This document shows positions 14,949 to 31,757 of a stretch of 31,757 nt of DNA, one piece after another; the first letter of the stretch is position 1, and each line of letters begins with the position of its first letter. The stretch spans positions 1 to 31,757 of the forward strand of contig JAWODC010000035.1 in assembly GCA_046483495.1 (NCBI GenBank), read 5' to 3'. The position numbers and the translations under genes were made by a program. This stretch comes from Desulfobacterales bacterium (lineage in GTDB: Bacteria; Desulfobacterota; Desulfobacteria; Desulfobacterales; UBA5616). Below the pieces are notes generated by a model, which had not been told where the DNA came from, did not search any database, and saw only the letters and a program-made list of their open reading frames with translations.

Positions 14949-15027
14949 TGGTTCAATCCCTCTCTTTGGTTGATTGGGCGAATTAAACAATTGCGGGAAT
15001 AAAAATATTGACACCAAAAACCTGATT

Positions 15028-15056
15028 ATGATAAAAGGCGGCAAGCTTCATGTCAA
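15028..15056 (-). promoter_or_regulatory. Putative sigma70 promoter for the OYE gene and the leftward block
   Basis: Minus strand reads TTGACA-17 nt-TATCAT. Confidence 0.55.
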
Positions 15057-15080: not shown

Positions 15081-15155
15081 ATGGCATATCAAACCGGCAG
15101 ACTCTATTTTTATTGGTACTATTTTTTTAGGACCGGTCTGCCTGTGGTTCGCTGA
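15081..15155 (+). CDS. Putative attenuator leader peptide rich in aromatic residues (MAYQTGRLYFYWYYFFRTGLPVVR)
   Basis: 24-codon ORF with 8 consecutive Tyr/Phe/Trp codons, directly upstream of tandem terminators and the aro operon. Confidence 0.8.
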   Translation: MAYQTGRLYFYWYYFFRTGLPVVR

Positions 15156-15173
15156 ATAAACCTAATAAAAAGC

Positions 15174-15249
15174 AAAAGCCGTGGGTAGATCGAAAGCCCG
15201 CGGCTTTTTTTGTTTTTTAAGGCCGCGGAATCCTCTTCCCGGCCTTTTT
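15174..15249 (+). terminator. Tandem attenuator terminators of the aro leader
   Basis: T1: AAAAGCCGTGGG/CCCGCGGCTTTT with a U-tract (15174-15211). T2: AAGGCCG(C)GGAA/TTCCCGGCCTT with a U-tract (15219-15249). Confidence 0.8.
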
Positions 15250-15272
15250 GCGATCACCAGGAGGAAATGACC

Positions 15273-16073
15273 ATGACGATTTTGGGCAAAAAGATTCGAA
15301 CGGAGCGCATCATCAACCGGAACACCCGTAAAACCATTATTGTTCCTATGGATCACGGCATGTCCGTGGGGCCGATTCCGGGCGTCATCGACATGAAGGA
15401 GGCCATCGACAAAGTATCTGAGGGCGGCGCCAATGCCATCGTGGAGCATAAGGGATTGGTTGAGGAGGGCCACCGGGGTGAAGGCAAAGACATCGGCCTG
15501 ATTATTCATCTATCCGCCTCCACCAACCTTTCCATTTACCCCCACGCAAAGACCCTGGTCTGCAGTGTGGAAGAGGCCATCAAACTGGGTGCAGACGCCG
15601 TGTCCATTCATGTCAACCTCGGAAACGGGCAGGAAAAAGAAATGCTCGGAGACTTCGGAAGGGTCGCTTACGAGGCGAGGACGTGGGGTATGCCCCTTCT
15701 GGCCATGGTGTATCCCAGAGGGGAGAAAATCAAAGATGAATATGATGTGCAAGTAGTAAAGCACGCGGCGCGCGTGGGCAGTGAAATGGGCGCGGATATC
15801 GTAAAAGTGTCGTACACCGGCAGCGCGGAAACGTTTCACGAGGTCGTTCAGGGGTGTTCGGTACCGGTGGTGATCGCCGGCGGGGAAAAAATGGAATCCG
15901 ATCGTGACATTCTGGAAATGGTAAAAGGCAGCATCGATGCCGGTGGGGCGGGGGTTTCCATCGGACGGAATGTCTTCCAGCATGAGGACCCTGCCAGAAT
16001 GGTTCGGGCTATCTCCGCCATCGTTAACGAAGGCAAGGATGTCGGTGAAGCCCTGCTGATATTGAACGATTAA
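15273..16073 (+). CDS. aroA': 2-amino-3,7-dideoxy-D-threo-hept-6-ulosonate (ADH) synthase, DhnA-type class I aldolase
   Basis: [45 protein letters not shown] and GRNVFQ. Adjacent to DHQ synthase II. AGGAGG RBS. Confidence 0.88.
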
Positions 16074-16084
16074 GGAGGGGCGCC

Positions 16085-17077
16085 ATGAGAAAGATCTGGG
16101 TGAGGGTGGATCCATGGGACAAGCAGATCGTAACCACGGCCTTAGAAGGCGGGGCCGACGGCATTATGGTTCCCAAGGGATTTTCCGAAAAAGTAAAACA
16201 ACTGGGACGAATTCAGACGATCGCCGAAGACGGGGACCTGGTTCTGGGAAAAGATGTGATTGCATTTCACATCACAAGCGGCGAGGATGAAGATGAGATC
16301 GCAAAACTGAGCCAAACCCGCACGGTTATCCTCGAAACAGCGGATTGGTCCATTATACCCCTTGAAAATCTCATTGCCAGGGGGGCCGATGTCGTGGCCC
16401 AGGTCGGCAGCCTGAGCGAAGCCCAAACCGCCTTCGGAATTTTGGAGAAGGGCGTCAATCATATTCTGTTCCATACCACCGATCCTTCCGAACTGAAGAC
16501 GGCGCTTGCAGCCCTTCGATCCTCTGCGGACAAGACGCCCCTCCAGGAAGCGGAAATTCTGGAAATAACGGCTGTGGGCATGGGGGATCGGGTATGCGTG
16601 GACACCTGCACATCCATGGCCCCGGGACAAGGCATGCTGGTGGGCAACAGCAGCAGCGGCTTGTTTCTGGTTCATGCCGAAAGCATCGCCAATCCGTATG
16701 TCACCCCACGGCCGTTCCGGGTCAATGCGGGGGCGGTCCACGCCTACACGCGGGTTCCCGAAGGAAAAACCCGGTATTTGTCCGAGCTTTGCGCGGGTGA
16801 TTCGGTATTGATCGTGGATCATGAAGGGAATACGTATCCGTCTATCGTGGGCCGGTTAAAAATAGAAAAGCGGCCCCTGATGCTCGTCCGGGCGGTGGTC
16901 GGCGACATGGAGGCCACCACCATTCTGCAGAATGCCGAAACCATTCGGCTGACCGATCCCGAAGGAAAGGCCGTGTCCGTGGTCAACCTTGCGGCCGGAG
17001 ACAAGGTGCTCGTCGCGGTGGAAAAAAGCGGCCGGCATTTCGGGATGAAAATCGATGAAACGATCACGGAAAAATGA
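16085..17077 (+). CDS. aroB': 3-dehydroquinate synthase II (archaeal-type)
   Basis: DWSIIPLENLIA, GDRVCVDTC, RPFRVNAGAVHAY, ILQNAETIRL and GRHFGMKIDETITEK. Confidence 0.93.
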   Translation: MRKIWVRVDPWDKQIVTTALEGGADGIMVPKGFSEKVKQLGRIQTIAEDGDLVLGKDVIAFHITSGEDEDEIAKLSQTRTVILETADWSIIPLENLIARGADVVAQVGSLSEAQTAFGILEKGVNHILFHTTDPSELKTALAALRSSADKTPLQEAEILEITAVGMGDRVCVDTCTSMAPGQGMLVGNSSSGLFLVHAESIANPYVTPRPFRVNAGAVHAYTRVPEGKTRYLSELCAGDSVLIVDHEGNTYPSIVGRLKIEKRPLMLVRAVVGDMEATTILQNAETIRLTDPEGKAVSVVNLAAGDKVLVAVEKSGRHFGMKIDETITEK

Positions 17078-17089
17078 GGCGCAACCGAT

Positions 17090-18346
17090 ATGATTGAAAT
17101 TCCCCCCATACGGATCGATACCGCCGCCGTGTCGGTGCCCGGATCGAAAAGTTACACCCATCGCATCCTCATCGCCGCCTCTCTTTCCGACGGCCTCTGC
17201 ACGGTGACCGGGGCCTTGAAAAGCGAGGATACGGATCTGACCCAAAACGGGCTGCGCCAAATGGGGGTCATGATCGAAGAAAAGAATGCTTCCGTAAACA
17301 TTCACGGGACCGGCGGACAATTGAAACCGGCCGGTAAGCCTATTTGCCTGGCAAACTCGGGCACTTCCATGAGGCTGTTAACCGGTGTGGCCGCCATCGG
17401 CAGGGGCGAGTATGAGCTGACCGGAACACGGCGGATGAAAGAGCGTCCCATCCAGGATCTGCTCGACGCGTTACGGCTGCTGGGGGTCGATGCCCATTCC
17501 AAAAACGATGACGGGTGCCCCCCCGTTATCGTCCGCGGCGGCGATGTCATGGGGGGAAGGACACGCGTTCGATGCCTTCTCAGCAGTCAATTTCTGTCGG
17601 CGTTGCTTCTCATCGCCCCATATACGGCATCGGGCATGACCATCGATGTAACAGAGGGGCCGGTTTCCAGGCCGTATATCGATATGACGGTGGACATCAT
17701 GGGGCAAATGGGGGTCGAAGTCCGGCGGTACGGTTATGACCGGTTCGATGTCGCCGGTGGTCGGATTTATGCATCCGGTGATTATGAGGTGGAACCGGAT
17801 TATTCACAGGCGGGGTATTTCTGGGGCGCCGCCGCCGTTTCCGGCACGGCCGTCAAAGTGATACGGACCACCCGGAATACGCGGCAGGGCGATGTCCGTT
17901 TCCTGGAAGTGCTTCAGAAGATGGGATGCAAGGTGATCGGGGAGCCGGACGGCATCACGGTCATCGGCAGGCCGCTCTCCGGGATCGAAGTGGATATGGC
18001 CGATATGCCCGACATGGTTCCCACATTAGCGGTGGTGGCGGCGTTTGCCTGCGGGGTGACCCGGATTAAAGGTGTGGCCCATTTGAGGGCGAAGGAGAGC
18101 GACCGTATTCACAGCGTGGTGACCGAACTTGAAAAGCTCGGCATCGATGCTCAGGCCCTGGATGATGGGATGCTCATTCAGGGCGGAACCCCCCGCGGCA
18201 CCCGTATCGACACTTACAACGATCACCGAATGGCCATGGCATTTTCACTTGCCGGTCTGATGGTGCCCGGAGTCTTCATAAACGATGAAACCTGCGTCCG
18301 CAAATCCTTTCCCGATTATTGGGAGGTTTTAAAAAAACTCTGCTGA
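17090..18346 (+). CDS. aroA: 3-phosphoshikimate 1-carboxyvinyltransferase (EPSP synthase)
   Basis: PGSKSYTHR, NSGTSMR, SSQFLS, KESDR, DHRMAM and KSFPDYW. Confidence 0.95.
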   Translation: MIEIPPIRIDTAAVSVPGSKSYTHRILIAASLSDGLCTVTGALKSEDTDLTQNGLRQMGVMIEEKNASVNIHGTGGQLKPAGKPICLANSGTSMRLLTGVAAIGRGEYELTGTRRMKERPIQDLLDALRLLGVDAHSKNDDGCPPVIVRGGDVMGGRTRVRCLLSSQFLSALLLIAPYTASGMTIDVTEGPVSRPYIDMTVDIMGQMGVEVRRYGYDRFDVAGGRIYASGDYEVEPDYSQAGYFWGAAAVSGTAVKVIRTTRNTRQGDVRFLEVLQKMGCKVIGEPDGITVIGRPLSGIEVDMADMPDMVPTLAVVAAFACGVTRIKGVAHLRAKESDRIHSVVTELEKLGIDAQALDDGMLIQGGTPRGTRIDTYNDHRMAMAFSLAGLMVPGVFINDETCVRKSFPDYWEVLKKLC

Positions 18347-18450
18347 GTCATGGGAAGACTCATCCGCACCCATGGTGAAGCGATGGAAATCGAGGGCCGT
18401 TTTTCGGCTCCAAGGACATACGCAAAAAAACTAAAACCAAGAGAAACATC

Positions 18451-19539
18451 ATGTCCAGTTCGTTCGGCAGCATATTCAAGGTGACCACTTTCGGAGAATC
18501 CCACAGCCGGGGTGTGGGGGCGGTGGTGGACCATTGCCCGCCGGGGCTCGTTGTAAGTGAGGCGGATATCCAGCGGCAGCTTGACCGGCGGAAACCGGGA
18601 CAGAGCCGGATGACGACACAGCGCGATGAAAAAGATAAGGTGACGGTGCTGTCCGGGATCGAAAACAACCGGACGCTGGGAACACCCATCGCCCTGATGA
18701 TCGCCAATACGGACCACAGGCCGTCGGATTACACCCACCTGCGCCGTGTTCCGAGACCGTCGCACGCGGATTATACGTATCAGGTGAAATACGGCATGCG
18801 ATCCGCCAGCGGCGGCGGCCGCGCAAGTGCGCGTGAAACAGCCGGCCGGGTGGCCGCGGGGGCGGTGGCAGACATTTTTTTAAAAGAAGTTTACGGCATC
18901 GATATCATTGCCTGGGTCAGTGCCGTCGGATCTCTTTCGGCACCACCGGTGGATATGGAGACCATAACGCGAACCGAGGTGGATCGATCGCTGGTGAGAT
19001 GTCCGGATGAAGAAGCCTCCCAAAAAATGGTGGAGGCCGTGGATGCGGTGAAGGCCGCCGGCGATTCCATCGGGGGAATCATCACCTGTATTTGCCGCGG
19101 GGTTCCCGCCGGTTGGGGAGAGCCGGTATTCGACAAGATGGAAGCAAAACTGGCCCATGGCATCATGTCCATCCCCGCCGTCAAAGGCTTCGAAGTCGGA
19201 TCGGGTTTTGCCGGATCCCGAATGACCGGTTCGGCTCACAACGATCGCTTTGTCAAAAAAGGAAACCGTCTCGGCACTGCCACAAATTTCAGCGGCGGAA
19301 TTCAGGGGGGGATTACGAACGGGGAAATGGTCACGTTCAATGTCGCGTTCAAGCCTACGGCCACCATCGGGCTGACTCAGATCAGCGCCGATTTTGACGG
19401 GAATTCCGTTGAAATTGAAGGCAAAGGGCGGCATGATCCGTGTGTACTTCCCCGGGCCGTGCCCATTGTGGAAAGCATGGCCGCGCTGGTCCTTGCGGAT
19501 ATGGCGTTGATTCAACAAACGAGGATGCAAAAAACATGA
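18451..19539 (+). CDS. aroC: Chorismate synthase
   Basis: [37 protein letters not shown] and GRHDPCV. Confidence 0.97.
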
Positions 19540-20291
19540 TCGGCATTATTGGATTTGGACGATTTTCTGCGCTGATGGTCCGGTATCTTAGAGATGAAGT
19601 CGCCATTCGCATATCGACGCGGCGGGACAAACGGGAAGAAATAACATCACTCGGGGCATTGCAGGTTCCCTTCGAAGAAGTATGCCGCCTGCCGGTCGTT
19701 ATTCTGTCGGTACCCATATCGGCGATGGAAGAAACACTGCACCGGATGGCGCCTTTGGCCCGGTCCGACGCACTGGTCATCGACGTGTGCTCCGTAAAAA
19801 CCTACCCGGTCAAATGGATGAGGGAAATACTGCCGGAATCGACGTCACTGCTTGCCACGCATCCCATGTTCGGTCCGGACAGTGCGGCGGATTCCCTGTC
19901 GGGCAGAAAAATCGTGGTGTGCAGGGAGCGCATCGGCCGTGAGCGGTATGGGAAGATCAAGGATTTTCTCACATCAAAGGGACTCATCGTAATGGAGACA
20001 TCGCCGGAAGAACACGACAGGCAGATCGCCGCAAGTTTGTCGCTGACCCACTTTCTCGGCCGCAGCCTTGCGGAATTTGGTGCGGCCCCGCTTGACATCG
20101 ATACGGAAGGTTATAAACGATTATTGCGGATACTGGAAGTGACTCAGCACGATACCTGGGAGTTGTTCCGTGACATGCATGCGTATAATCCGTATGCAAA
20201 AGGTGTCCGATCCGACTTTATGGGGGCGATTGAAAAAATCAATGACCTGCTGGAGGGAAAACGGCCGTTGCCCTTTGAAAAAAACGATTGA
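19536..20291 (+). CDS. tyrA: Prephenate/arogenate dehydrogenase
   Basis: Rossmann motif IGIIGFGRF, plus [15 protein letters not shown] and EEHD. ATGA overlap with the aroC stop. Confidence 0.88.
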
Positions 20292-20316
20292 CAACGGGCG
20301 AAAAAAAGAACACTAT
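20288..20316 (+). promoter_or_regulatory. Putative sigma70 promoter of the trp leader
   Basis: TTGACA-17 nt-CACTAT about 30 nt upstream of the leader ATG. Confidence 0.55.
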
Positions 20317-20347
20317 TCGAAAAAAATCGTTACCGGGGAATAATACG

Positions 20348-20446
20348 ATGTTCTGCAACTTATTGAAGACTTCCACAAACAATGCATGGTGGTGGTGTGC
20401 CTGGAGAATACGGCATGCCGACGGACCACTGTACCGATCGCCGTAA
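20348..20446 (+). CDS. trpL: trp operon leader peptide (MFCNLLKTSTNNAWWWCAWRIRHADGPLYRSP)
   Basis: 32-codon ORF containing WWWCAW, upstream of tandem terminators and trpE. Confidence 0.85.
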   Translation: MFCNLLKTSTNNAWWWCAWRIRHADGPLYRSP

Positions 20447-20466
20447 CGTTGATGACATAAAAAACG

Positions 20467-20542
20467 AAAACCGTGGGCAGCCGAAACGCCCGCGGTTTTT
20501 TTTGGAGTAGAGGGCCGCGGGAAAAAACGCGGCCCTTTTTTT
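20467..20542 (+). terminator. Tandem attenuator terminators of the trp leader
   Basis: T1: AAAACCGTGGGC/GCCCGCGGTTTT with T8 (20467-20503). T2: AGGGCCGCG/CGCGGCCCT with T7 (20511-20542). Confidence 0.85.
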
Positions 20543-20574: not shown

Positions 20575-22074
20575 ATGCGGTTACATCAGTTTCCCGATCA
20601 GCAGCGGTTTAAAGCGCTGTCCGCCGACCACAACGTTATACCGGTTTGTGTGGAAATCCTGGCCGATACGGAAACGCCGGTGACCTTGCTGAAAAAGTTT
20701 TACCGCGGCAATGGCGCGGTTTTTCTGTTTGAAAGCGTGGAAGGCGGCGAGCGGTGGGGACGGTACAGCTTCCTGGGGACGTCCGCCCGGTCGGATATCC
20801 GGGTCTATGAGGATGTCGTAGAAATTTCCGGAAACGGGGAGATCCGGCGGATTCCGCACCAGCACGATCCCCTGCCGGTTTTGAGAAGCATCATGTCCGA
20901 ATATGATCCCGCCGAAATCAAAGAGATGCCGAGGTTCTGGGGGGGCATGGTCGGTTACGTGACGTATGAGATGGTTTCGTTTTTCGAGGATATACCCCAT
21001 AAACTGCCGAAAAATTCGCCATTGGCACATTTCATCATTGCCGACGAGCTGATCATTTTCGACAACCTGAAGAATTCGCTTCTGGCGGTTGCCATTGCGT
21101 TTCTGGACGAAAATACATCCCCTGATGCGGCGTACCGGAATGCCGTGCAGCGTGTCGACGGGCTGCTTTCCGTTATGGCAAAACCCGTTTCTTTTGAACC
21201 GGAATATTCAGGGGAGCTCTATCGGCTCGAACCGCGATTGGATCCGGAAGTATACCGGCAATCCGTTTCCAGGGTAAAGGCCTACATTCGCGATGGTGAA
21301 ATTATTCAGGCCGTTGTTTCACAGCCGTTCACCTGCAGCAGTGTTCCGGATCTCTGGATGCTGTACCGGACGCAACGCTACATCAACCCGTCTCCCTACC
21401 TGTTTTTCCTTCACCTTGGGAATACGGCGCTTGTCGGATCGTCACCGGAAACCATGGTCCGTTTGGAAAACCGGGTGGCGACGCTGAGGCCCATTGCCGG
21501 AACGCGTCCCAGGGGGGCAAATGAGCAGGAGGACCGGCATATGGCGAATGAACTGCTGCAGGATGAAAAAGAAAAAGCCGAGCACCTGATGCTCGTGGAC
21601 CTCGGGCGAAATGACCTGGGACGGGTGGCCGTGACAGGGACGGTTCAGGTCACGGATCTGATGTTTGTCGAACGGTATTCCCATGTTATGCACCTGGTAT
21701 CCAATATTACCTGTGATGTCGAAAGCGGGTGCGATGCGTGGGATCTGCTGCGGGCCACGTTTCCGGCGGGAACCCTGTCGGGCGCTCCCAAGGTAAGGGC
21801 TATGGAAATCATCGCTGAAATGGAAGAAACACCGCGGGGGCCGTATGGCGGCGCCGTGGGGTATGTATCATTCAGCGGGAACATGGATCTGGCCATCACG
21901 ATCCGAACCGCCGTCGTGGAAAACGGGCGGCTTACCGTTCGAGCCGGCGGCGGCATCGTGGCCGATTCCGATCCGGAAAAGGAGCGTATGGAAACCGTCA
22001 ACAAGTCCAGGGCGCTGGAAAAGGCGCTTCTGCTCGTGCAACATGCATCGGTGAAAAAGGAGGATCAGCCATGA
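20575..22074 (+). CDS. trpE: Anthranilate synthase component I
   Basis: ADTETPV, LFESVEGGERWGRYSF, NPSPY, GSSPE, PIAGT, EHLMLVDLGRND and FPAGTLSGAPK. ATG 20575 follows an AAGGA RBS. Confidence 0.96.
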   Translation: MRLHQFPDQQRFKALSADHNVIPVCVEILADTETPVTLLKKFYRGNGAVFLFESVEGGERWGRYSFLGTSARSDIRVYEDVVEISGNGEIRRIPHQHDPLPVLRSIMSEYDPAEIKEMPRFWGGMVGYVTYEMVSFFEDIPHKLPKNSPLAHFIIADELIIFDNLKNSLLAVAIAFLDENTSPDAAYRNAVQRVDGLLSVMAKPVSFEPEYSGELYRLEPRLDPEVYRQSVSRVKAYIRDGEIIQAVVSQPFTCSSVPDLWMLYRTQRYINPSPYLFFLHLGNTALVGSSPETMVRLENRVATLRPIAGTRPRGANEQEDRHMANELLQDEKEKAEHLMLVDLGRNDLGRVAVTGTVQVTDLMFVERYSHVMHLVSNITCDVESGCDAWDLLRATFPAGTLSGAPKVRAMEIIAEMEETPRGPYGGAVGYVSFSGNMDLAITIRTAVVENGRLTVRAGGGIVADSDPEKERMETVNKSRALEKALLLVQHASVKKEDQP

Positions 22075-22643
22075 TCGTCGTAATCGACAACTATGATTCG
22101 TTTACGTATAACCTGGTTCAGTACATGGGCCAAATCGGTGCGGACATACAGGTTTTCAGAAACGATACGATTTCCGCTGTAGAGGTCGCGGCGTTGAATC
22201 CGTCCGGCATCGTCATATCCCCGGGCCCGGGAAGGCCCGAATCCGCCGGGATCTCCGTTTCGGTGATCGAATTGCTTTCCGGAAAAATTCCTATTCTGGG
22301 CGTCTGTCTGGGCCATCAGTCCATTGCCTGTGCGTTCGGAGGAAGCATCGTATCGGCGCGCAGCCTGATGCACGGCAAAACGTCCATGATCGACGCCGAT
22401 GGAAAGGCCGTTTACAAGGGGATTACCAGGCCCTTTCAGGCGATGCGCTACCATTCACTGGCCGTAAACGAAAATAATCTACCGGAGTGCTTCGATATCA
22501 GTGCGCGTTCCGAAGACGGTGAAATCATGGGCATACGCCATAAGTCGCATCCCACGGAAGGTATACAGTTTCACCCGGAATCCATTATGACGCCGCTCGG
22601 CAAACGCATTCTGAGAAATTTCTTAACCATGTCGCAGGTCTGA
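22071..22643 (+). CDS. trpG: Anthranilate synthase component II (glutamine amidotransferase)
   Basis: IDNYDSFTYNL, SPGPG, GVCLGHQ and QFHPES. Confidence 0.95.
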   Translation: MIVVIDNYDSFTYNLVQYMGQIGADIQVFRNDTISAVEVAALNPSGIVISPGPGRPESAGISVSVIELLSGKIPILGVCLGHQSIACAFGGSIVSARSLMHGKTSMIDADGKAVYKGITRPFQAMRYHSLAVNENNLPECFDISARSEDGEIMGIRHKSHPTEGIQFHPESIMTPLGKRILRNFLTMSQV

Positions 22644-22683
22644 ACAGACGTTACCGAAAACGATTTATTCAAGGAGAAAAAAA

Positions 22684-23703
22684 ATGGCATTTCGAGAGAG
22701 TCTTTCTAAAATTGTGAACAGAACCGATTTAAGCGAAGCGGAGATGGGTGAGATGCTGTCCGATATCTTCAACGGGAAGGCGACCGACGCCCAGATCGGT
22801 GCTATGATGGGGGCCCTGGCGACGAAAGGCGAAACCTTCGAAGAGCTCGCCGGTGCGGCGCGGGTTATGAGACGAAAAGCCCTGCGCATTCAGTCTTCGG
22901 CCGAGACCGTTCTGGACACCTGCGGCACCGGAGGGGACGGCGCCGGAACGTTTAACATTTCCACGACGACCGCTTTTGTGGTGGCCGGTTGCGGCGTTTG
23001 CACGGCCAAGCACGGAAATCGCTCCATATCCAGCCGGTGCGGCAGTGCCGATTTGTTGGAGGCGTTGGGGGTCAAGATCGATACGGACCCCGAAATCGTA
23101 GAGGAGGCGCTGCAGGAAATCGGCATCGGTTTCATGTTCGCACCGGTTTACCACGGGGCGATGCGGTTTGCCGCAACGGCCAGGAAAGAGGTGGGGCTGC
23201 GGTCCATTTTCAATATGCTGGGGCCATTGACCAATCCGGCTGCGGCCAATTGCCAGCTGGTGGGGGTGTATGCGCCGGAGCTCACCGAAATGTTTGCCGC
23301 CGCATTGAACCTGCTGGGAGTGAAGCGGGCTTTTGTGGTTCACGGCCACGACGGGCTCGATGAAATTTCCGTATGCGCCCCAACCCGGGTTTCGGAATTA
23401 AAAGACGGCCTCGTTCGTACATACGATATCTCGCCGGAACAATTTTTTGACAGGCAGGCGGACCCGGAAGAACTCGTCGGGGGGGATCCGGAGGTAAACG
23501 CCCAAATCACCCGCAGTATTTTGCAGGGAGAAAAAGGCGCCCGCCGGGACGTGGTCGTCCTCAATGCAGCGGCTGCGCTGGTGGCTGCCGGCAAGGCCCA
23601 AAGCACCAAAAGCGGTATTGCCCTGGCTGAAGCCGCGATCGACGGCGGGGGTGCAATGGAGAAGTTAAATGCATTGATTCAGTATACCCGGGAAAACGGA
23701 TAA
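22684..23703 (+). CDS. trpD: Anthranilate phosphoribosyltransferase
   Basis: DTCGTGGDG, NISTT, KHGNRS, GSAD and GLDE. Confidence 0.96.
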   Translation: MAFRESLSKIVNRTDLSEAEMGEMLSDIFNGKATDAQIGAMMGALATKGETFEELAGAARVMRRKALRIQSSAETVLDTCGTGGDGAGTFNISTTTAFVVAGCGVCTAKHGNRSISSRCGSADLLEALGVKIDTDPEIVEEALQEIGIGFMFAPVYHGAMRFAATARKEVGLRSIFNMLGPLTNPAAANCQLVGVYAPELTEMFAAALNLLGVKRAFVVHGHDGLDEISVCAPTRVSELKDGLVRTYDISPEQFFDRQADPEELVGGDPEVNAQITRSILQGEKGARRDVVVLNAAAALVAAGKAQSTKSGIALAEAAIDGGGAMEKLNALIQYTRENG

Positions 23704-23708
23704 ACGCC

Positions 23709-24521
23709 ATGACAAAGGATTTTCTGACCACCATCGTGCAGGCGAAGAGGGATCGGGTTGCCGCTGCAAAGAAAAGAATATCCGAAAGCGATCTGTACCA
23801 CAATTTCGGCGGGGGGAGAGTAAAGCGGCCCTTTTTTCACAACCTGTCGGTCCCCGGCGCAGGGGGTCTCAACATTATTGCGGAAATCAAGCGGGCATCC
23901 CCCTCAAAGGGACCTATTCGAGAGGACCTGGATCCGGCCCGGTTTGCAAGCTCCTACGAAAAAGGCGGTGCTGCGGCGGTATCCGTGTTGACGGACGAGC
24001 GGTTTTTCAACGGCAGCCTGGCGGATTTGCGGCGTGCACGTGCGGCGACAACCCTTCCCGTGCTCCGTAAGGACTTCATTATTTCTTCCTACCAGATCCA
24101 TGAGGCGTATGCCGCCGGCGCGGATGCCGTTTTGCTGATCGCTCGAATCCTCGACCGGGAAATGCTCAAAGACTTTATGGATATCTGCAGGGATATCGAT
24201 ATGGATACACTGGTTGAAATTCACCGGGAAAAAGACATCGAAACGGCCGCGCTTGCCGGTGCCGAACTGATCGGGATCAACAACCGTGATCTGAGCTCGT
24301 TTAAGACGGATATCCAAACGGCGTTCCGATTAGCCGCTATGCTGGCCCCCGGTCAGATACCCGTAGCGGCCAGCGGAATACGTTCACGGGAAGATATCGT
24401 ACGCACCAAAAAAGCCGGAATCTTCAATTTTCTCATCGGGGAAAGTCTGGTGCGGGCGGAAAACACAGAAGCATTTTTGAAAAGCCTTTTGGGTGCACAG
24501 GCGGAAAATGGGGCCTTATGA
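23709..24521 (+). CDS. trpC: Indole-3-glycerol-phosphate synthase
   Basis: IIAEIKRASPSKG, SVLTD, LRKDF and GINNRDL. Confidence 0.96.
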   Translation: MTKDFLTTIVQAKRDRVAAAKKRISESDLYHNFGGGRVKRPFFHNLSVPGAGGLNIIAEIKRASPSKGPIREDLDPARFASSYEKGGAAAVSVLTDERFFNGSLADLRRARAATTLPVLRKDFIISSYQIHEAYAAGADAVLLIARILDREMLKDFMDICRDIDMDTLVEIHREKDIETAALAGAELIGINNRDLSSFKTDIQTAFRLAAMLAPGQIPVAASGIRSREDIVRTKKAGIFNFLIGESLVRAENTEAFLKSLLGAQAENGAL

Positions 24522-25183
24522 GTACAGAAGCAGCTCCCCAGGTGAAAATTTGCGGCATTACCCGGATCGAGGATGCTCTTTCATGTGTCCGATGCGGAGC
24601 GGATGCGCTGGGATTCGTTTTCTTCCCGAAAAGTCCGAGATGCGTATCCGTCGAAACCACCAAAGCCATCATCAGCCGCCTGCCGAAAACGGTAACGACG
24701 GTCGGCGTGTTCGTCGACGCCTCGTTTAACCACATAAAGCGCAGCGTCGAAACATGCGGGCTTGACGCCGTACAGCTGCACGGGCGGGAATCACCGGAAA
24801 TGGTCCGCCGGCTGGGCGCTGAAAACCTGATCGTCATCAAAACGCTTTTTTCGAAGCGGCCCCCGTATATCGACGAGATGCTCGACTTCGACGCCTCGGC
24901 GGTTCTGGCGGAATGCGGAAGAGGTGACTTACCGGGGGGAAACGCGCTTGCCTGGAACTGGTCCGAAGCAGGCAGGCTCAACCGTCACCATCCCCTTATC
25001 CTGGCCGGCGGGCTGACCCCCGAAAATGTCCGGCAGGCCGTTCGTGATGCCCAGCCGGATGCCGTGGACGTCAGTTCGGGCGTTGAACTGCTGCCGGGGC
25101 GAAAAAACCCAGAAAAGATAAAGGCATTTGTCGAACGGGTCAGAGATGTGCGAGTCCTTTCGCCGAAGAAAATATTCGGATAA
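24518..25183 (+). CDS. trpF: Phosphoribosylanthranilate isomerase
   Basis: VKICGIT, SPR, VQLHG, LAGGLTPENV and VDVSSGVE. Confidence 0.95.
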   Translation: MSTEAAPQVKICGITRIEDALSCVRCGADALGFVFFPKSPRCVSVETTKAIISRLPKTVTTVGVFVDASFNHIKRSVETCGLDAVQLHGRESPEMVRRLGAENLIVIKTLFSKRPPYIDEMLDFDASAVLAECGRGDLPGGNALAWNWSEAGRLNRHHPLILAGGLTPENVRQAVRDAQPDAVDVSSGVELLPGRKNPEKIKAFVERVRDVRVLSPKKIFG

Positions 25184-25219: not shown

Positions 25220-25981
25220 TCACCGAAGACTTCTGATGAAGGCCCCCACGGCATCGACACCCTCGCGATCGAAAACCCGGATGGCTTCCGATCCGACGAC
25301 GGCGATATCCGCCTTGCCGCGCAAAAAATCGACTTCGGTTTTATCTTTTACACCGAATCCGACTGCAAGCGGAAGCCGGGTATTTCTTCGGCATGCGTTA
25401 AGGTAGTCGGCAAGCTCCTCTGAAAAAGCCGTTTTTTCGCCGGTCACCCCTTTTCGGGCAACGCAGTAAATGAATCCATCGGCCCGGCTGTCGATGAACC
25501 CCATTCGTTTTTCCGGTGTTGTCGGCGAGAAAATGTAAATAGGGGCCAATTGGTGGTTTTTCATAGCGGTCTGGTATTCATCGGCTTCCTCGGGTGGAAG
25601 GTCCGGAACGATCGCCCCTTTTACACCGGCCGCGGCCAACCCGGAAACGAACCGGTCCACGCCGGACGCAAAAAGAATATTGTAGTACGTCATGATCAAA
25701 AAAGGGATATCGAACAGCTCCGTCACCTTTCGGGCAAACGCCATGCAGGCCGACACCCGGGTGCCGTTGGCAAGCGCTTTCTGATTGGCGTTGAGAATCA
25801 CCGGCCCGTCCGCAATCGGTTCCGAAAACGGAATCTGCAGCTCCATGAGATCGACACCGGCATTGACCATGGCCGAAACAACGGCGAGTGAATCATCGAA
25901 GGACGGATATCCCATCACGATATGGGTCATGAGCAGAATGTCTTTTTCTTCCAATCTTTTCCGGATATCGTTATCCAGCAT
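25220..25981 (-). CDS. trpA: Tryptophan synthase alpha chain
   Basis: ELQIPFSEPIADGPVI, MTYYN, PDLPPEE, GVTG, VGFG and VVGS. Confidence 0.95.
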   Translation of the reverse strand: MLDNDIRKRLEEKDILLMTHIVMGYPSFDDSLAVVSAMVNAGVDLMELQIPFSEPIADGPVILNANQKALANGTRVSACMAFARKVTELFDIPFLIMTYYNILFASGVDRFVSGLAAAGVKGAIVPDLPPEEADEYQTAMKNHQLAPIYIFSPTTPEKRMGFIDSRADGFIYCVARKGVTGEKTAFSEELADYLNACRRNTRLPLAVGFGVKDKTEVDFLRGKADIAVVGSEAIRVFDREGVDAVGAFIRSLR

Positions 25982-27200
25982 GATAGTCCTCCGCCTTTTT
26001 CATGATGAACCGTTTCCAGCCGGGATCGTCAAATGCATCGGCAATGGTAAAAATGTCTTTGTCTCCCCTTCCGGACTGATTGATGACAACGACTTCATCG
26101 GGGCCGAGTTGCGGCGCTTCCTTGAAGGCCTGGACAAACGCGTGGGCGGATTCCAGAGCCGGAATCAGGCCCTCTTTTCTCACGGTCAAGGCAAGGGCGT
26201 CCACCACCTCCCGGTCCGTTGCCGCCTCGAACCGGACACGCCCGGTTTCCTTCAGTTGGGACAAGATCGGCGAAACCCCCACGTAATCCAATCCGGCGGC
26301 GATGCTGTGGGTCTCCTTCATCTGGCCGTCTTCATCCTGGAGAAAATAGGACTTGTAGCCCTGGGCCACGCCGATGCCGCCGTCTTTGGATTTCAGCCGG
26401 GAAGCATGCGATCCCGTATCGAGACCCTTTCCGCCGGCTTCCACCCCTACCAGCTCGACCGGATCGGTCATGAACCCCTGGAAAATCCCCATGGCATTGG
26501 AGCCGCCGCCCACACAGGCATAAACCCGCGCCGGCAGTTTGTTTTCGGTATTCAGGATTTGCTCCCTTGCTTCTTTTCCGATGATGGACTGAAAATAGGA
26601 CACCATCTCGGGGAAGGGATGGGGGCCGCTGGCCGTTCCCAGCACATAATGGGTGGCGGCCATGTTTCTTGCCCAATCCCGAAAGGCTTCGTTGATGGCG
26701 TCTTTTAAAATGCGGGTGCCGTCCGTAACCGGTATCACCTCGGCTCCCAGCCGTTCCATCCAGAACACGTTGGGCCGCTGCCGAACGACATCCGTTTCAC
26801 CCATGTAAATGGTGCAGGCAAAACCGAACTTGGCCGCCATGGTTGCACAGGCCACGCCATGCTGGCCGGCCCCTGTTTCGGCGATCACCCTTTTTTTGCC
26901 CATACGTTGAACCAAAAGGCCCTGTCCCATGACATTGTTGGCCTTGTGCGCTCCGGTGTGGTTCAGATCTTCACGTTTGATGTAGATTTTGGCGCCGCCG
27001 AAATGCCGGGTTAAATTCTCGGCATAGGTCAGGGGTGTCGGACGGCATGAATAGGTCGACATGATGGATTCATAGGATGACCAGAAATGGGGATCATGTT
27101 TTGCGGCTGTAAACGCGGCTTCCAGTTCTTCGAACGTCGCTGTGAGTATTTCGGGGATGAATGCGCCGCCGAATCGGCCGTAGTAGCCTCTAGTTTTCAT
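25971..27200 (-). CDS. trpB: Tryptophan synthase beta chain (TrpB1 type)
   Basis: KREDLNHTGAHK (PLP lysine), AETGAGQHG, CVGGGSNA, AGLDY, PALESAHA and SGRGDKD. Confidence 0.96.
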   Translation of the reverse strand: MKTRGYYGRFGGAFIPEILTATFEELEAAFTAAKHDPHFWSSYESIMSTYSCRPTPLTYAENLTRHFGGAKIYIKREDLNHTGAHKANNVMGQGLLVQRMGKKRVIAETGAGQHGVACATMAAKFGFACTIYMGETDVVRQRPNVFWMERLGAEVIPVTDGTRILKDAINEAFRDWARNMAATHYVLGTASGPHPFPEMVSYFQSIIGKEAREQILNTENKLPARVYACVGGGSNAMGIFQGFMTDPVELVGVEAGGKGLDTGSHASRLKSKDGGIGVAQGYKSYFLQDEDGQMKETHSIAAGLDYVGVSPILSQLKETGRVRFEAATDREVVDALALTVRKEGLIPALESAHAFVQAFKEAPQLGPDEVVVINQSGRGDKDIFTIADAFDDPGWKRFIMKKAEDYHAG

Positions 27201-27924
27201 CTTGAATTCCTCCGAGTTTCTGGGAGAAGACGAACCGGTCCGTACGGCAGAAAAGGTCCGAGTAGACGCCGTTTGGGACGTCGGGAAAATCGATGAACCG
27301 GTTCAGCGCCAAAACGGGCGTTTCCTTCGATACGCCCAGCAGTCTGGCCCTTGCGGCATTGGGATATGCGATTCTGAAATGCTGTCTTCCACCGGTCGGC
27401 TTTAGATAGAAATAATCCGATACGATCTGTGAAAGGGACCGGCCGGTGAGGTCGAATTTGTCAATGCCGGAAAACAGTCCGGGATGGAGATAAATATCTT
27501 CCAGCAGGACGGGTTCATTGTCGACCCGGCTGACCCGTGGAAAAAAATAGGCGTTTTGATCGAAGAAAGGATTGGCGGCATCCTGATGCACCGTAATCAG
27601 GCGGATACGATTCACGATGTGCGATACGACGGATATGCCCTTTTTCTGAAAGGAGGAGAGGGTTCCAGCCAGACTGAACAGATCCACTTCGCGATGCTCG
27701 TTCTGCACAAACGTGCCGGCGCCCCGCTTTCTACGAAGCACGCCTTTGCGGACCAATACTTCCGTGGCCTGCCGGACCGTTGGCCGGCCGATGTTGTAGT
27801 GTTTTGCCATCTCGTGTTCGGAAGGAAGCCGGGTACCCGGCGGATAGTCGCCATTGATGACTTTTTCGCTGATGATATCGGCCAGTTGTTGATACAGCGG
27901 CAGTGGTGATGTTGTGTTCAGCAT
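27190..27924 (-). CDS. GntR-family (HutC/UTRA subfamily) transcriptional regulator
   Basis: wHTH PLYQQL...LPSEHEMAKHYNIGRPTVRQA...RKRGAGTFV followed by a UTRA-like C-terminal domain. Its stop overlaps the trpB start. An alternative GTG start lies at 27957. Confidence 0.9.
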   Translation of the reverse strand: MLNTTSPLPLYQQLADIISEKVINGDYPPGTRLPSEHEMAKHYNIGRPTVRQATEVLVRKGVLRRKRGAGTFVQNEHREVDLFSLAGTLSSFQKKGISVVSHIVNRIRLITVHQDAANPFFDQNAYFFPRVSRVDNEPVLLEDIYLHPGLFSGIDKFDLTGRSLSQIVSDYFYLKPTGGRQHFRIAYPNAARARLLGVSKETPVLALNRFIDFPDVPNGVYSDLFCRTDRFVFSQKLGGIQDEN

Positions 27925-28002
27925 CGTTATATTCCTGTAAAGCAAGGTTGCGGGCACGGCCGATCTCCCTGTCGTGGATCCAGCCGCCCCTTTTTACAGT
28001 TG

Positions 28003-31380: not shown

Positions 31381-31757
31381 ATGAAAATTTCAAACGCTGT
31401 AAAACTTTATCTTGACTATCACAAATCCCATTCCAAGGAAAACAGTGTGAGGGCCTATACGCTGGTGCTTACAAGGCTTTGTCAGGAATTTCAAGACGAG
31501 GACATGAACGTTATAACCACTGAAAGGATCCTCCCATTCCTGAATTCAATCACTGAAGGTAAAAAACAGCAAACTAAAAAGACTCGATATTCCCATCTTT
31601 TAGCCTTCTTTAATTTTGTAAGGATCAATCTCGACCCGAAGTTTCATAACCCCTGTGATACCCCAATGCTGAAAAAACTGTTCAGGGCTAAAACAAATTT
31701 TCATTGGAACATCATCGATAAAGAAACCGTTGATGAGATTATTTTTAGGACATCCAA
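31381..31757 (+). CDS. Tyrosine recombinase/integrase, N-terminal core-binding portion (runs off the window)
   Basis: Manual translation MKISNAVKLYLDYHKSHSKENSVRAYTLVL...KKQQTKKTRYSHLLAFFNFVRINLDPKFHNPCDTPMLKKLF...IIDKETVDEIIFRT is open to the window end. It matches the integrase SAM-like pattern (S/T-x-R-x-Y...L..FF.F...NP). AGGAGGT RBS. The catalytic domain is not visible. Confidence 0.7.
   Translation, partial: MKISNAVKLYLDYHKSHSKENSVRAYTLVLTRLCQEFQDEDMNVITTERILPFLNSITEGKKQQTKKTRYSHLLAFFNFVRINLDPKFHNPCDTPMLKKLFRAKTNFHWNIIDKETVDEIIFRTS

Follow-up and report, generated by a model that had tools for sequence, protein, structure and literature searches.

The window considered here, i.e., the whole stretch of 31,757 nucleotides that was analysed (contig JAWODC010000035.1 of assembly GCA_046483495.1, from a Desulfobacterales bacterium), harbours two biosynthetic gene sets on its forward strand, an aro operon of the aroA'B'-aroA-aroC-tyrA type and the trp genes trpEGDCF. 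Each of them is preceded by a leader which consists of a short open reading frame (ORF) with a run of codons for products of the pathway, followed by two successive terminator-like hairpins, T1 and T2. In both leaders, the arms of T1 are designated 3 and 4, those of T2 are designated 5 and 6, and helix 4:5 associates the 3' arm of T1 with the 5' arm of T2 (Table 1). The aro leader ORF contains eight aromatic codons consecutively. All five helices, 1:2, 2:3, T1, 4:5 and T2, fold singly with similar energies in both leaders. With loops limited to 3-8 nucleotides, a promoter and terminator scan detected neither of the T1 hairpins and neither of the proposed promoters; TTGACA occurs in the corresponding place in most orthologous aro leaders.

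Table 1. Features of the aro and trp leaders and of the genes they precede, in window coordinates (energies in kcal/mol).
Feature	Position	Strand	Remarks
aro putative promoter	15008..15037	+	-35 TTGACA at 15008-15013; poor -10; absent from promoter-scan calls
aro leader ORF, 24 amino acids	15081..15155	+	control codons YFYWYYFF at 15105-15128
aro region 1	15092..15102	+	partner of region 2 when ribosome absent; fold 1:2 -19.0
aro region 2, antiterminator 5' strand	15135..15150	+	within ORF, right before stop; fold 2:3 -21.1
aro T1 (arms 3 and 4)	15174..15211	+	U7 at 15205-15211; -21.1
aro relay helix 4:5	15198..15228	+	arm 4 15198-15204 with arm 5 15222-15228; -17.6; covariation
aro T2 (arms 5 and 6)	15219..15249	+	U5 at 15245-15249; -16.1
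Regulated aro operon (predicted)	15273..20291	+	NCBIfam matches
ADH synthase (aroA'), first aro gene	15273-16073	+	NCBIfam
DHQ synthase II	16085-17077	+	NCBIfam
aroA	17090-18346	+	NCBIfam
aroC	18451-19539	+	NCBIfam
prephenate dehydrogenase-like (tyrA)	19533-20291	+	NCBIfam, under curated cut-offs
trp putative internal promoter	20288..20316	+	TTGACA, 17 nucleotides, CACTAT; overlaps tyrA stop codon; absent from promoter-scan calls
trp leader ORF, 32 amino acids, WWWCAW	20348..20446	+	Trp codons 20387-20395 and 20402-20404
trp region 1	20386..20401	+	fold 1:2 -19.6
trp region 2, antiterminator 5' strand	20411..20424	+	fold 2:3 -21.9
trp T1	20467..20503	+	U8 at 20496-20503; -20.5
trp relay helix 4:5	20489..20521	+	arm 4 20489-20495 with arm 5 20515-20521; -20.3; covariation
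trp T2	20510..20542	+	U7 at 20536-20542; -21.5
Regulated trp genes trpEGDCF (predicted)	20575..25183	+	NCBIfam
trpE	20575-22074	+	NCBIfam
trpG	22071-22643	+	NCBIfam
trpD	22684-23703	+	NCBIfam
trpC	23709-24521	+	NCBIfam
trpF	24518-25183	+	NCBIfam

Likeness and conservation of the two leaders

A first-pass annotation of this DNA had described near-homologous modules in both leaders, and the sequences and coordinates it gave for them are all present in the window exactly as quoted. The alignment of the aro module with the trp module reaches a score of 83, compared with 26.6 ± 9.5 (maximum 62) in 2000 dinucleotide shuffles. Among the 585 terminator-like sites found by scanning the 4.19-Mb genome, the one most like the aro module is the trp module, with a score of 80, followed by a site with 54; tandem hairpin pairs occur three times among these sites, two of them being the aro and trp leaders and the third lying in a low-complexity repeat on a different contig. 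Similarly, a covariance model built from T1 and T2 alone (R1) recovers full modules from this genome only at the two leaders (72 and 70 bits), the next match reaching 33 bits. This weaker match (L065, contig C69, about 92968-93031, minus strand) is a single terminator ahead of ilvD, in an Ile/Val/Leu-rich leader; the outer arms of the terminator resemble hairpin 1 and no second hairpin accompanies it. A generic repeat scattered at gene ends, which the first-pass annotation had named as one observation that would undo its proposal, is not what the genome contains, and a dispersed (REP-like) repeat is at odds with two full copies, both located in leaders.

Conservation was assessed in 61 genomes, comprising the window's own, one congener, four more of the family and 55 from other families of the order, from which the top 30 loci were taken for each first gene, ADH synthase and trpE, window included. 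An aromatic-rich leader and both hairpins occur at all 29 assessable ADH-synthase loci. At the trpE loci the leaders are Trp-rich and both hairpins are found in 27 of the 29 assessable cases (25 parsed automatically and two by eye), one further locus being cut off; of the remaining two, one has an insert interrupting hairpin 2 and the other a single terminator. Six loci (L009, L044, L045, L051, L053 and L060), which are cut by a contig end, divergent, interrupted or single-hairpin, were excluded from all statistics. Named records with near-identical modules belong mostly to Desulfobacterales and other former delta-proteobacteria. Palindromic inserts of 100-250 nucleotides lie between the cassette and the first gene at L016, L018, L023, L035, L041, L051, L053 and L058, and the insert of L053 splits hairpin 2.

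Pairing between the hairpins and the proposed relay

The first-pass annotation had suggested that the 3' arm of T1 pairs in a domino fashion with the 5' arm of T2, and this pairing is conserved and covarying, unlike its control. Arms 3 and 5 being alike, helix 4:5 could arise from a copied hairpin; hence the mirror helix 3:6, which has the same kinship and is expected to be as good as 4:5 under mere duplication, served as an internal control. When own partners were compared with swapped ones, 4:5 gave z -5.7 (29 aro modules) and z -3.3 (25 trp modules) and 3:6 gave z -0.4 and z -0.9, these values being overstated, since kin are not independent, so that the evidence resides in the contrast between 4:5 and 3:6. 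In an alignment of 52 rows (A1), drawn from the 54 aro and trp modules and leaving aside L004 and L005, whose arm 6 was set by hand, 4:5 is paired in 95.7% (0 of 500 shuffles as good) and 3:6 in 80.1% (29 of 500). The covariation check which had been recommended for this pairing was extended to an independent set (A2), made of the 61 best-ranked R1 hits outside model training and away from the ADH-synthase and trpE genes already located; 211 weaker R1 matches lie beyond those listed. There, 4:5 is paired in 94.3%, with changes on both strands in eight of its ten pairs (3.9 expected), and 3:6 in 71.7%; swapping within gene families, which were assigned by hand, yields z -5.9 for 4:5 and -0.4 for 3:6. 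Moreover, substitutions tend to give G-U pairs in 4:5 but mismatches in 3:6.

It has to be considered that T2 might be a duplicate of T1 that dampens transcription constitutively or serves as a back-up, in which case the complementarity of arms 4 and 5 would simply follow from the likeness of arms 3 and 5. Both arms share the core CCGYGG, so that duplication does yield 4:5, whole families change all four arms jointly, and 4:5 loses to T2 at equilibrium. However, duplication predicts that 3:6 equals 4:5, whereas paired cells amount to 72-80% for 3:6 and 94-96% for 4:5, the energies range from -10.6 to -11.4 kcal/mol and from -14.8 to -17.0 kcal/mol, respectively, and 3:6 displays no own-partner preference within families; in addition, a terminator of this strength (-16 to -22 kcal/mol), if left without regulation, would be expected to block essential biosynthetic operons. 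With these contrasts, a mere duplicate is improbable.

The complementarity of the leader ORF to the 5' arm of T1, also pointed out in the first-pass annotation, is borne out by the folding of 2:3 (Table 1) and by the own-versus-swapped test of region 2 with arm 3 (z -4.5 for aro, z -3.5 for trp). This preference bears on another explanation, in which the twin CCGYGG arms constitute the binding site of a protein antiterminator (or a dispersed repeat), the presence of the leader ORFs being a coincidence. Protein antiterminators are exemplified by the ANTAR-, TRAP- and LicT-like types. Across differing sensors, the arm core is indeed more conserved than pairing alone demands; against such a site speak the lack of conservation of the hairpin loops, the control codons, which follow the downstream pathway in six classes, the preference of region 2 for its own arm 3, and the restriction of the two full copies of this genome to leaders, which together make a protein site very improbable.

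On this basis, each leader is likely a ribosome-stalling transcription attenuator in which a single stall disables both serial terminators by relay, a reading to which a probability of roughly 0.7 is assigned; when the version with only one terminating hairpin is counted as well, the relay becomes highly probable. A ribosome stalled at the control codons would free region 2, which would capture arm 3; with arm 3 taken, arm 4 would be free to capture arm 5 and neither terminator would form. With ample charged tRNA, the ribosome would reach the stop codon and cover region 2, allowing 3:4 (T1) to form, and in untranslated RNA region 2 would be locked in helix 1:2, again leaving T1 to form. Transcripts escaping T1 would then meet 5:6 (T2), arm 4 being already occupied. 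Helices 2:3 and 4:5 would have to form first and to persist, because they lose at full equilibrium. We infer leader translation, stalling, termination at either U-tract and this kinetic order from the layout and the folding models.

Whole-leader equilibrium folding was discarded as a way of revealing the switch, since it always returns T1 and T2. The leaders were instead folded at the nucleation stage, i.e., with just the RNA outside the polymerase at the moment each terminator must nucleate. With a stalled ribosome, both window leaders form 2:3 and later 2:3 together with 4:5, whereas with the ribosome at the stop codon or absent, T1 and T2 form once both arms are out. The same model applied to the E. 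coli trp leader gives the antiterminator at nucleation and the terminator at full length, and reproduces the switch. Among the homologues, the stalled fold contains 2:3 in 29/29 aro and 24/24 trp leaders and 4:5 in 28/29 and 16/24, respectively; T1 forms in all 53 with the ribosome at the stop codon, and the free fold, devoid of ribosome, gives T1 and T2 in 28/29 aro and 20/24 trp leaders. The computed barrier for the refolding of 4:5 into T2 amounts to 14-15 kcal/mol. A kinetic relay, as in classical attenuators, would be consistent with these models.

Several results nevertheless weigh against this reading. At whole-leader equilibrium both window leaders adopt T1 and T2, and even with 2:3 enforced the probability of 4:5 versus T2 is just 0.11 (aro) and 0.01 (trp); as 4:5 loses to T2 at equilibrium, the relay must depend on kinetics. 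In the trp leader, T1 outcompetes 2:3 once arm 4 is complete and, with the ribosome at the stop codon, 4:5 is preferred over T1 at the second nucleation point; the nucleation-stage fold is devoid of 4:5 in 8/24 trp leaders, and in the E. coli his leader the fold model failed to recover the D:E antiterminator. With respect to covariation, none of the 500 column shuffles on A2 equals the 3:6 control either, because whole families change all arms, and this control reaches z -3.8 in an all-against-all swap, so that these two tests alone cannot separate pairing from kinship on A2. Finally, single-terminator versions exist (L060, L286, L289 and the ilvD leader L065), so that some leaders can do without a second hairpin, and the U-run of T1 partly pairs within 3:4 and 4:5, so that its conservation is no proof of termination.

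The relay is better supported than the occurrence of two working terminators, since some leaders have no U-tract after the first hairpin and others have no second hairpin. A U-tract of at least 6 T in 8 follows T1 in 48/54 aro and trp modules and 55/61 A2 modules, and T2 in 42/54 and 52/61, respectively; both tracts are kept together in 38/54 modules. In L025, L026, L028 and L059 the first hairpin has no U-tract, yet region 2 and 4:5 are intact, which is sensible only if the hairpin is a relay. The same relay might accordingly be combined with a single true terminator, hairpin 1 acting mainly as a relay and T2 stopping transcription, or the reverse in some lineages, with no gain in tightness. 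Such an arrangement agrees with the modules in which hairpin 1 is followed by at most 4 T in 8 (4/54 and 2/61), with the U-tracts after hairpin 1 that look weak by eye in the phylum-level hits L270, L274, L277, L279, L296 and L303, with a T2 that is weak or absent in L057, L060, L286 and L289, and with a U-run after arm 4 which also lengthens helices 3:4 and 4:5. It is, however, unlikely, although clearly less so than the two explanations discussed above, considering that 6-8 T follow hairpin 1 in most modules, that the tracts are so often kept together, and that the U7 and U8 of the window, behind stems of about -21 kcal/mol, have the appearance of textbook intrinsic terminators. Judging from these stems and U-tracts, two working terminators are likely, as the two-terminator relay supposes, and the tighter repression proposed in the first-pass annotation is conceivable.

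Metatranscriptome data consist of contigs only (8 of 10 runs compared, in small shares). Three runs of one study contain contigs located inside the trp leader as exact matches (20323-20445, 20320-20455 and 20343-20443), two of which begin near the predicted start at about 20323 and all of which end ahead of T1, and contigs from four runs span both aro hairpins. Since contigs show no transcript ends, strand or level, they count as no evidence in either leader.

Relation to known attenuators

As in classical, trpL-type leaders, a short and conserved upstream ORF carries a run of codons for the products (YFYWYYFF, WWWCAW), and an intrinsic terminator-like hairpin with its U-tract lies between the ORF and the first gene, here twice per leader. 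In the folds, the antiterminator is freed by the stall and covered at the stop codon (53/53 at T1 nucleation), and the 1:2 hairpin leads to termination when translation is lacking. Modelled in this way, each leader operates as classical leader-peptide attenuators do. E. coli trpL and pheL similarly combine a cognate codon run with the 1:2/2:3/3:4 logic, but possess one terminator and are devoid of the 4:5/5:6 extension present here; moreover, unlike in trpL and pheL, it is the archaeal-type ADH/DHQ-II entry into the shikimate pathway that stands under the control of one mixed Phe/Tyr/Trp sensor.

The closest precedent for the topology is hisL of E. coli and Salmonella (Rfam His_leader), in which a leader peptide and a chain of alternative hairpins likewise relay the stall to the terminator. 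The labels A to F of its segments reportedly come from Johnston et al. 1980. The his chain (A:B, C:D and E:F versus B:C and D:E) has its equivalent in 1:2, 3:4 and 5:6 versus 2:3 and 4:5, and the E. coli arms C and E are alike, as are arms 3 and 5. The E. coli duplexes fold at -11.9 (B:C), -14.0 (C:D), -13.3 (D:E) and -24.7 kcal/mol (E:F). The domino topology itself is consequently not new. According to PMC11805395, E-F is the terminator of the his leader. The his leader has this one terminator and no U-tract after C:D, whereas here the middle hairpin is usually followed by 6-8 U (U7 and U8 after hairpin 1 in the window); it has no sequence match to the window leaders, and here one cassette serves many sensors. 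The window leaders lack a His codon run and give no match to Rfam His_leader at an E-value of 5.

A comparison with Rfam, advised in the first-pass annotation, returned no family that matches the cassette: Phe_leader (RF01859) reaches 27.2 bits where the gathering score is 55, Trp_leader gives no match at an E-value of 5, the trpB motif (RF04312) reaches 25 bits against 59 on the window leaders, and Phe_leader, Trp_leader and the trpB motif have 0 matches in 14 related loci. The trpB motif likewise consists of a hairpin, an antiterminator and a terminator ahead of amino-acid genes, but, according to PMC11109978, it occurs in Firmicutes and Fusobacteria and has one terminator. This survey took in a Desulfobacteraceae genome, and its supplement may list leaders of the present kind. 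Other systems resemble single aspects of the cassette. The alanine-rich upstream ORF of whiB7, which senses alanine starvation, is a precedent for an Ala version but differs in controlling a transcription factor (PMC10274678). Two terminators occur in one leader in rimP of some Gammaproteobacteria, where neither an amino-acid leader nor an arm-to-arm relay appears in the passage of PMC2965389 on this leader. Tandem attenuators also occur in the leader of Salmonella mgtCBR, according to PMC3641672, with two separate ORFs instead of the one ORF and two interlocked hairpins found here.

A literature search that covered few subscription journals found no description of this cassette. The survey of Lopatovskaya, Seliverstov and Lyubetsky in 2010 is said to have included delta-proteobacteria, and it is quite possible that the layout was described there earlier in silico. 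As PMC4833913 relates, the scope of attenuation was extended in that survey (PMID 20198868) to "chains of RNA helices". Whatever its first description, the cassette is a real, conserved and covarying relay attenuator with exchangeable sensors, and represents a variant of classical attenuation with a U-tailed middle hairpin.

Spread of the cassette, its sensors and its genomic context

The reuse of one module with an exchangeable peptide sensor, anticipated in the first-pass annotation, is found well beyond the window, the cassette being located behind Trp, Phe/Tyr/Trp, Phe, Leu, Ile/Val and Ala leaders that match their downstream genes. At the level of the phylum, 71 of 141 genomes contain an R1 hit at an E-value of 1e-6 or better. 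By reading, 58 of the 61 A2 hits sit behind a codon-run leader. Depending on the sensor, and with 36 of the 61 downstream proteins scanned and the others assigned by likeness, these leaders precede AroF-type DAHP synthase, trpD or trpE (Trp), AroG-type DAHP synthase, aroA or ADH synthase (mixed aromatic), a PaaK-like ligase, a LivJ-like binding protein or DAHP synthase (Phe), a LeuA-like protein (Leu) and a PRK06855 aminotransferase (Ala). Forty of the listed phylum-level hits were fetched, from 12 genomes having several; by reading, all 40 lie behind a codon-run leader and 38 have two hairpins, and they add Ile/Val leaders ahead of ilvB and Leu leaders ahead of leuB. Of the operons at which further copies had been foreseen, ilv and leu were thus recovered, whereas His and Thr sensors were absent among the hits examined.

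GTDB genomes were also scanned for the exact pattern (18 of 64 parts read, with an estimate of about 430 stretches), which yielded 118 loci; by tblastn, the gene downstream of 74 of the 119 matches is trpE, ADH synthase, LivJ-like, trpD or DAHP synthase, and nine matches look like chance. The records include Desulfobacterales, Desulfatiglandales, Syntrophales, Syntrophobacterales and Desulfohalobiaceae, together with a few Spirochaetota, Aquificales and Deferribacteres bins and the Chloroflexota records described below; bin labels may be wrong. The aro and trp modules of a same genome are hardly closer (74.6) than those of different genomes (71.2; 14 genomes, 1371 of 20000 permutations), so that concerted evolution within a genome is not supported in these 14 genomes; aro-aro (86.5) and trp-trp (81.7) likenesses both exceed the aro-trp values. 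These scores would fit a cassette that split long ago better than one still undergoing conversion, and we infer that the stretch which begins with arm 3 and ends with the second U-tract descends from a single ancestral module that came to serve different sensors.

As a rule, attenuators that respond to different amino acids are regarded as separate inventions with a common logic. A single recognisable cassette that accompanies Trp, aromatic, Phe, Leu, Ile/Val and Ala sensors makes it possible to test by comparison how attenuators arose and spread. Its covariance model serves as an annotation tool for leaders in this phylum, none of which is represented in Rfam, and from the sensor codons the substrates and the metabolic direction of poorly known genes can be predicted. 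If both terminators fire, the cassette would also represent a natural design of a low-leak RNA switch with one input.

Several downstream genes illustrate this predictive use. Poly-Ala leaders with the two-hairpin cassette lie ahead of a PRK06855 pyridoxal phosphate aminotransferase (L250, L251, L252 and L255); they occur in four of the six closest homologues (at least 70% identical), one of the other two being cut by a contig end, and none was seen in 11 more distant homologues. These leaders are predicted to sense alanine. Phe-rich leaders with the cassette precede a PaaK-like phenylacetate-CoA ligase (L080, L100, L104, L106, L108, L110, L113, L118, L121 and L123), an assignment for which three of ten proteins were scanned, under the curated cut-off on 330 amino acids; phenylalanine synthesis from phenylacetate would fit such a sensor. 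Phe-rich leaders also precede LivJ-like ABC binding proteins (L097, L112, L126, L281, L285 and L288, with at least 12 pattern hits in Syntrophales-type records), and their codons suggest aromatic rather than branched-chain substrates. Other associations comprise Phe/Tyr leaders ahead of PRK06836 aminotransferases (L293, L295, L298 and L307), Ile-rich leaders ahead of acyl-CoA dehydrogenase (L270 and L277), Phe leaders ahead of metallo-beta-lactamase-fold proteins (L161 and L191) and a Trp leader ahead of a UbiD-family decarboxylase (L299). L127 and L129 possess twin hairpins without a clear sensor leader, L129 being located ahead of the RsgA GTPase.

Sixteen Chloroflexota records (L138, L153, L160, L165, L174, L175, L183, L189, L203, L215, L216, L219, L220, L243, L247 and L249) match the arm pattern, most of them with a second hairpin. 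Their downstream genes are unrelated to the amino-acid set and encode GNAT acetyltransferases, DrrA-type ABC ATPases, an MFS and a HAD protein; the leaders are non-aromatic and several end in a common CRSAPxGRLT-like motif. The cassette may have a drug- or stress-sensing use there. The duplex of the upstream sequence with arm 3 (-14 to -25) is no better in these records than in chance-like hits (-14 to -22) and lends no support to an antiterminator.

A wider synthesis would combine all of the preceding into an ancient plug-and-play cassette, undescribed so far, with two working terminators per stall and lower leak than a single terminator, serving at least six amino-acid sensors phylum-wide in sulfate reducers and syntrophs. 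It would also include its re-use in Chloroflexota, where the leaders would sense something else, possibly ribosome-targeting drugs, and sensors that reveal the jobs of orphan genes, the PaaK-like ligase and LivJ-like proteins serving phenylalanine supply, PRK06855 being an alanine aminotransferase and PRK06836 an aromatic one. Taken jointly, these statements are tentative and fall somewhat short of even odds.

With respect to the genomic context of the window, no terminator was seen between the tyrA stop codon, which coincides in part with the -35 box of the trp promoter, and the trp leader (20288-20446), so that aro transcripts would enter the trp leader; aro and trp would accordingly make up one unit with two attenuators in series. 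The trpA and trpB genes (25220-27957) are located on the minus strand, converging on trpF, and lie outside the attenuated unit owing to this orientation; the ORF directly ahead of them resembles a GntR-type regulator, as labelled by its sequence alone. A strong divergent promoter on the minus strand (15028-15056; TTGACA, 17 nucleotides, TATCAT, 11/12) overlaps the aro promoter region and serves a gene for an OYE-family flavoenzyme. At the edge of the window (31381-31757), a truncated ORF gives, on reading, the impression of a tyrosine recombinase N-terminus.

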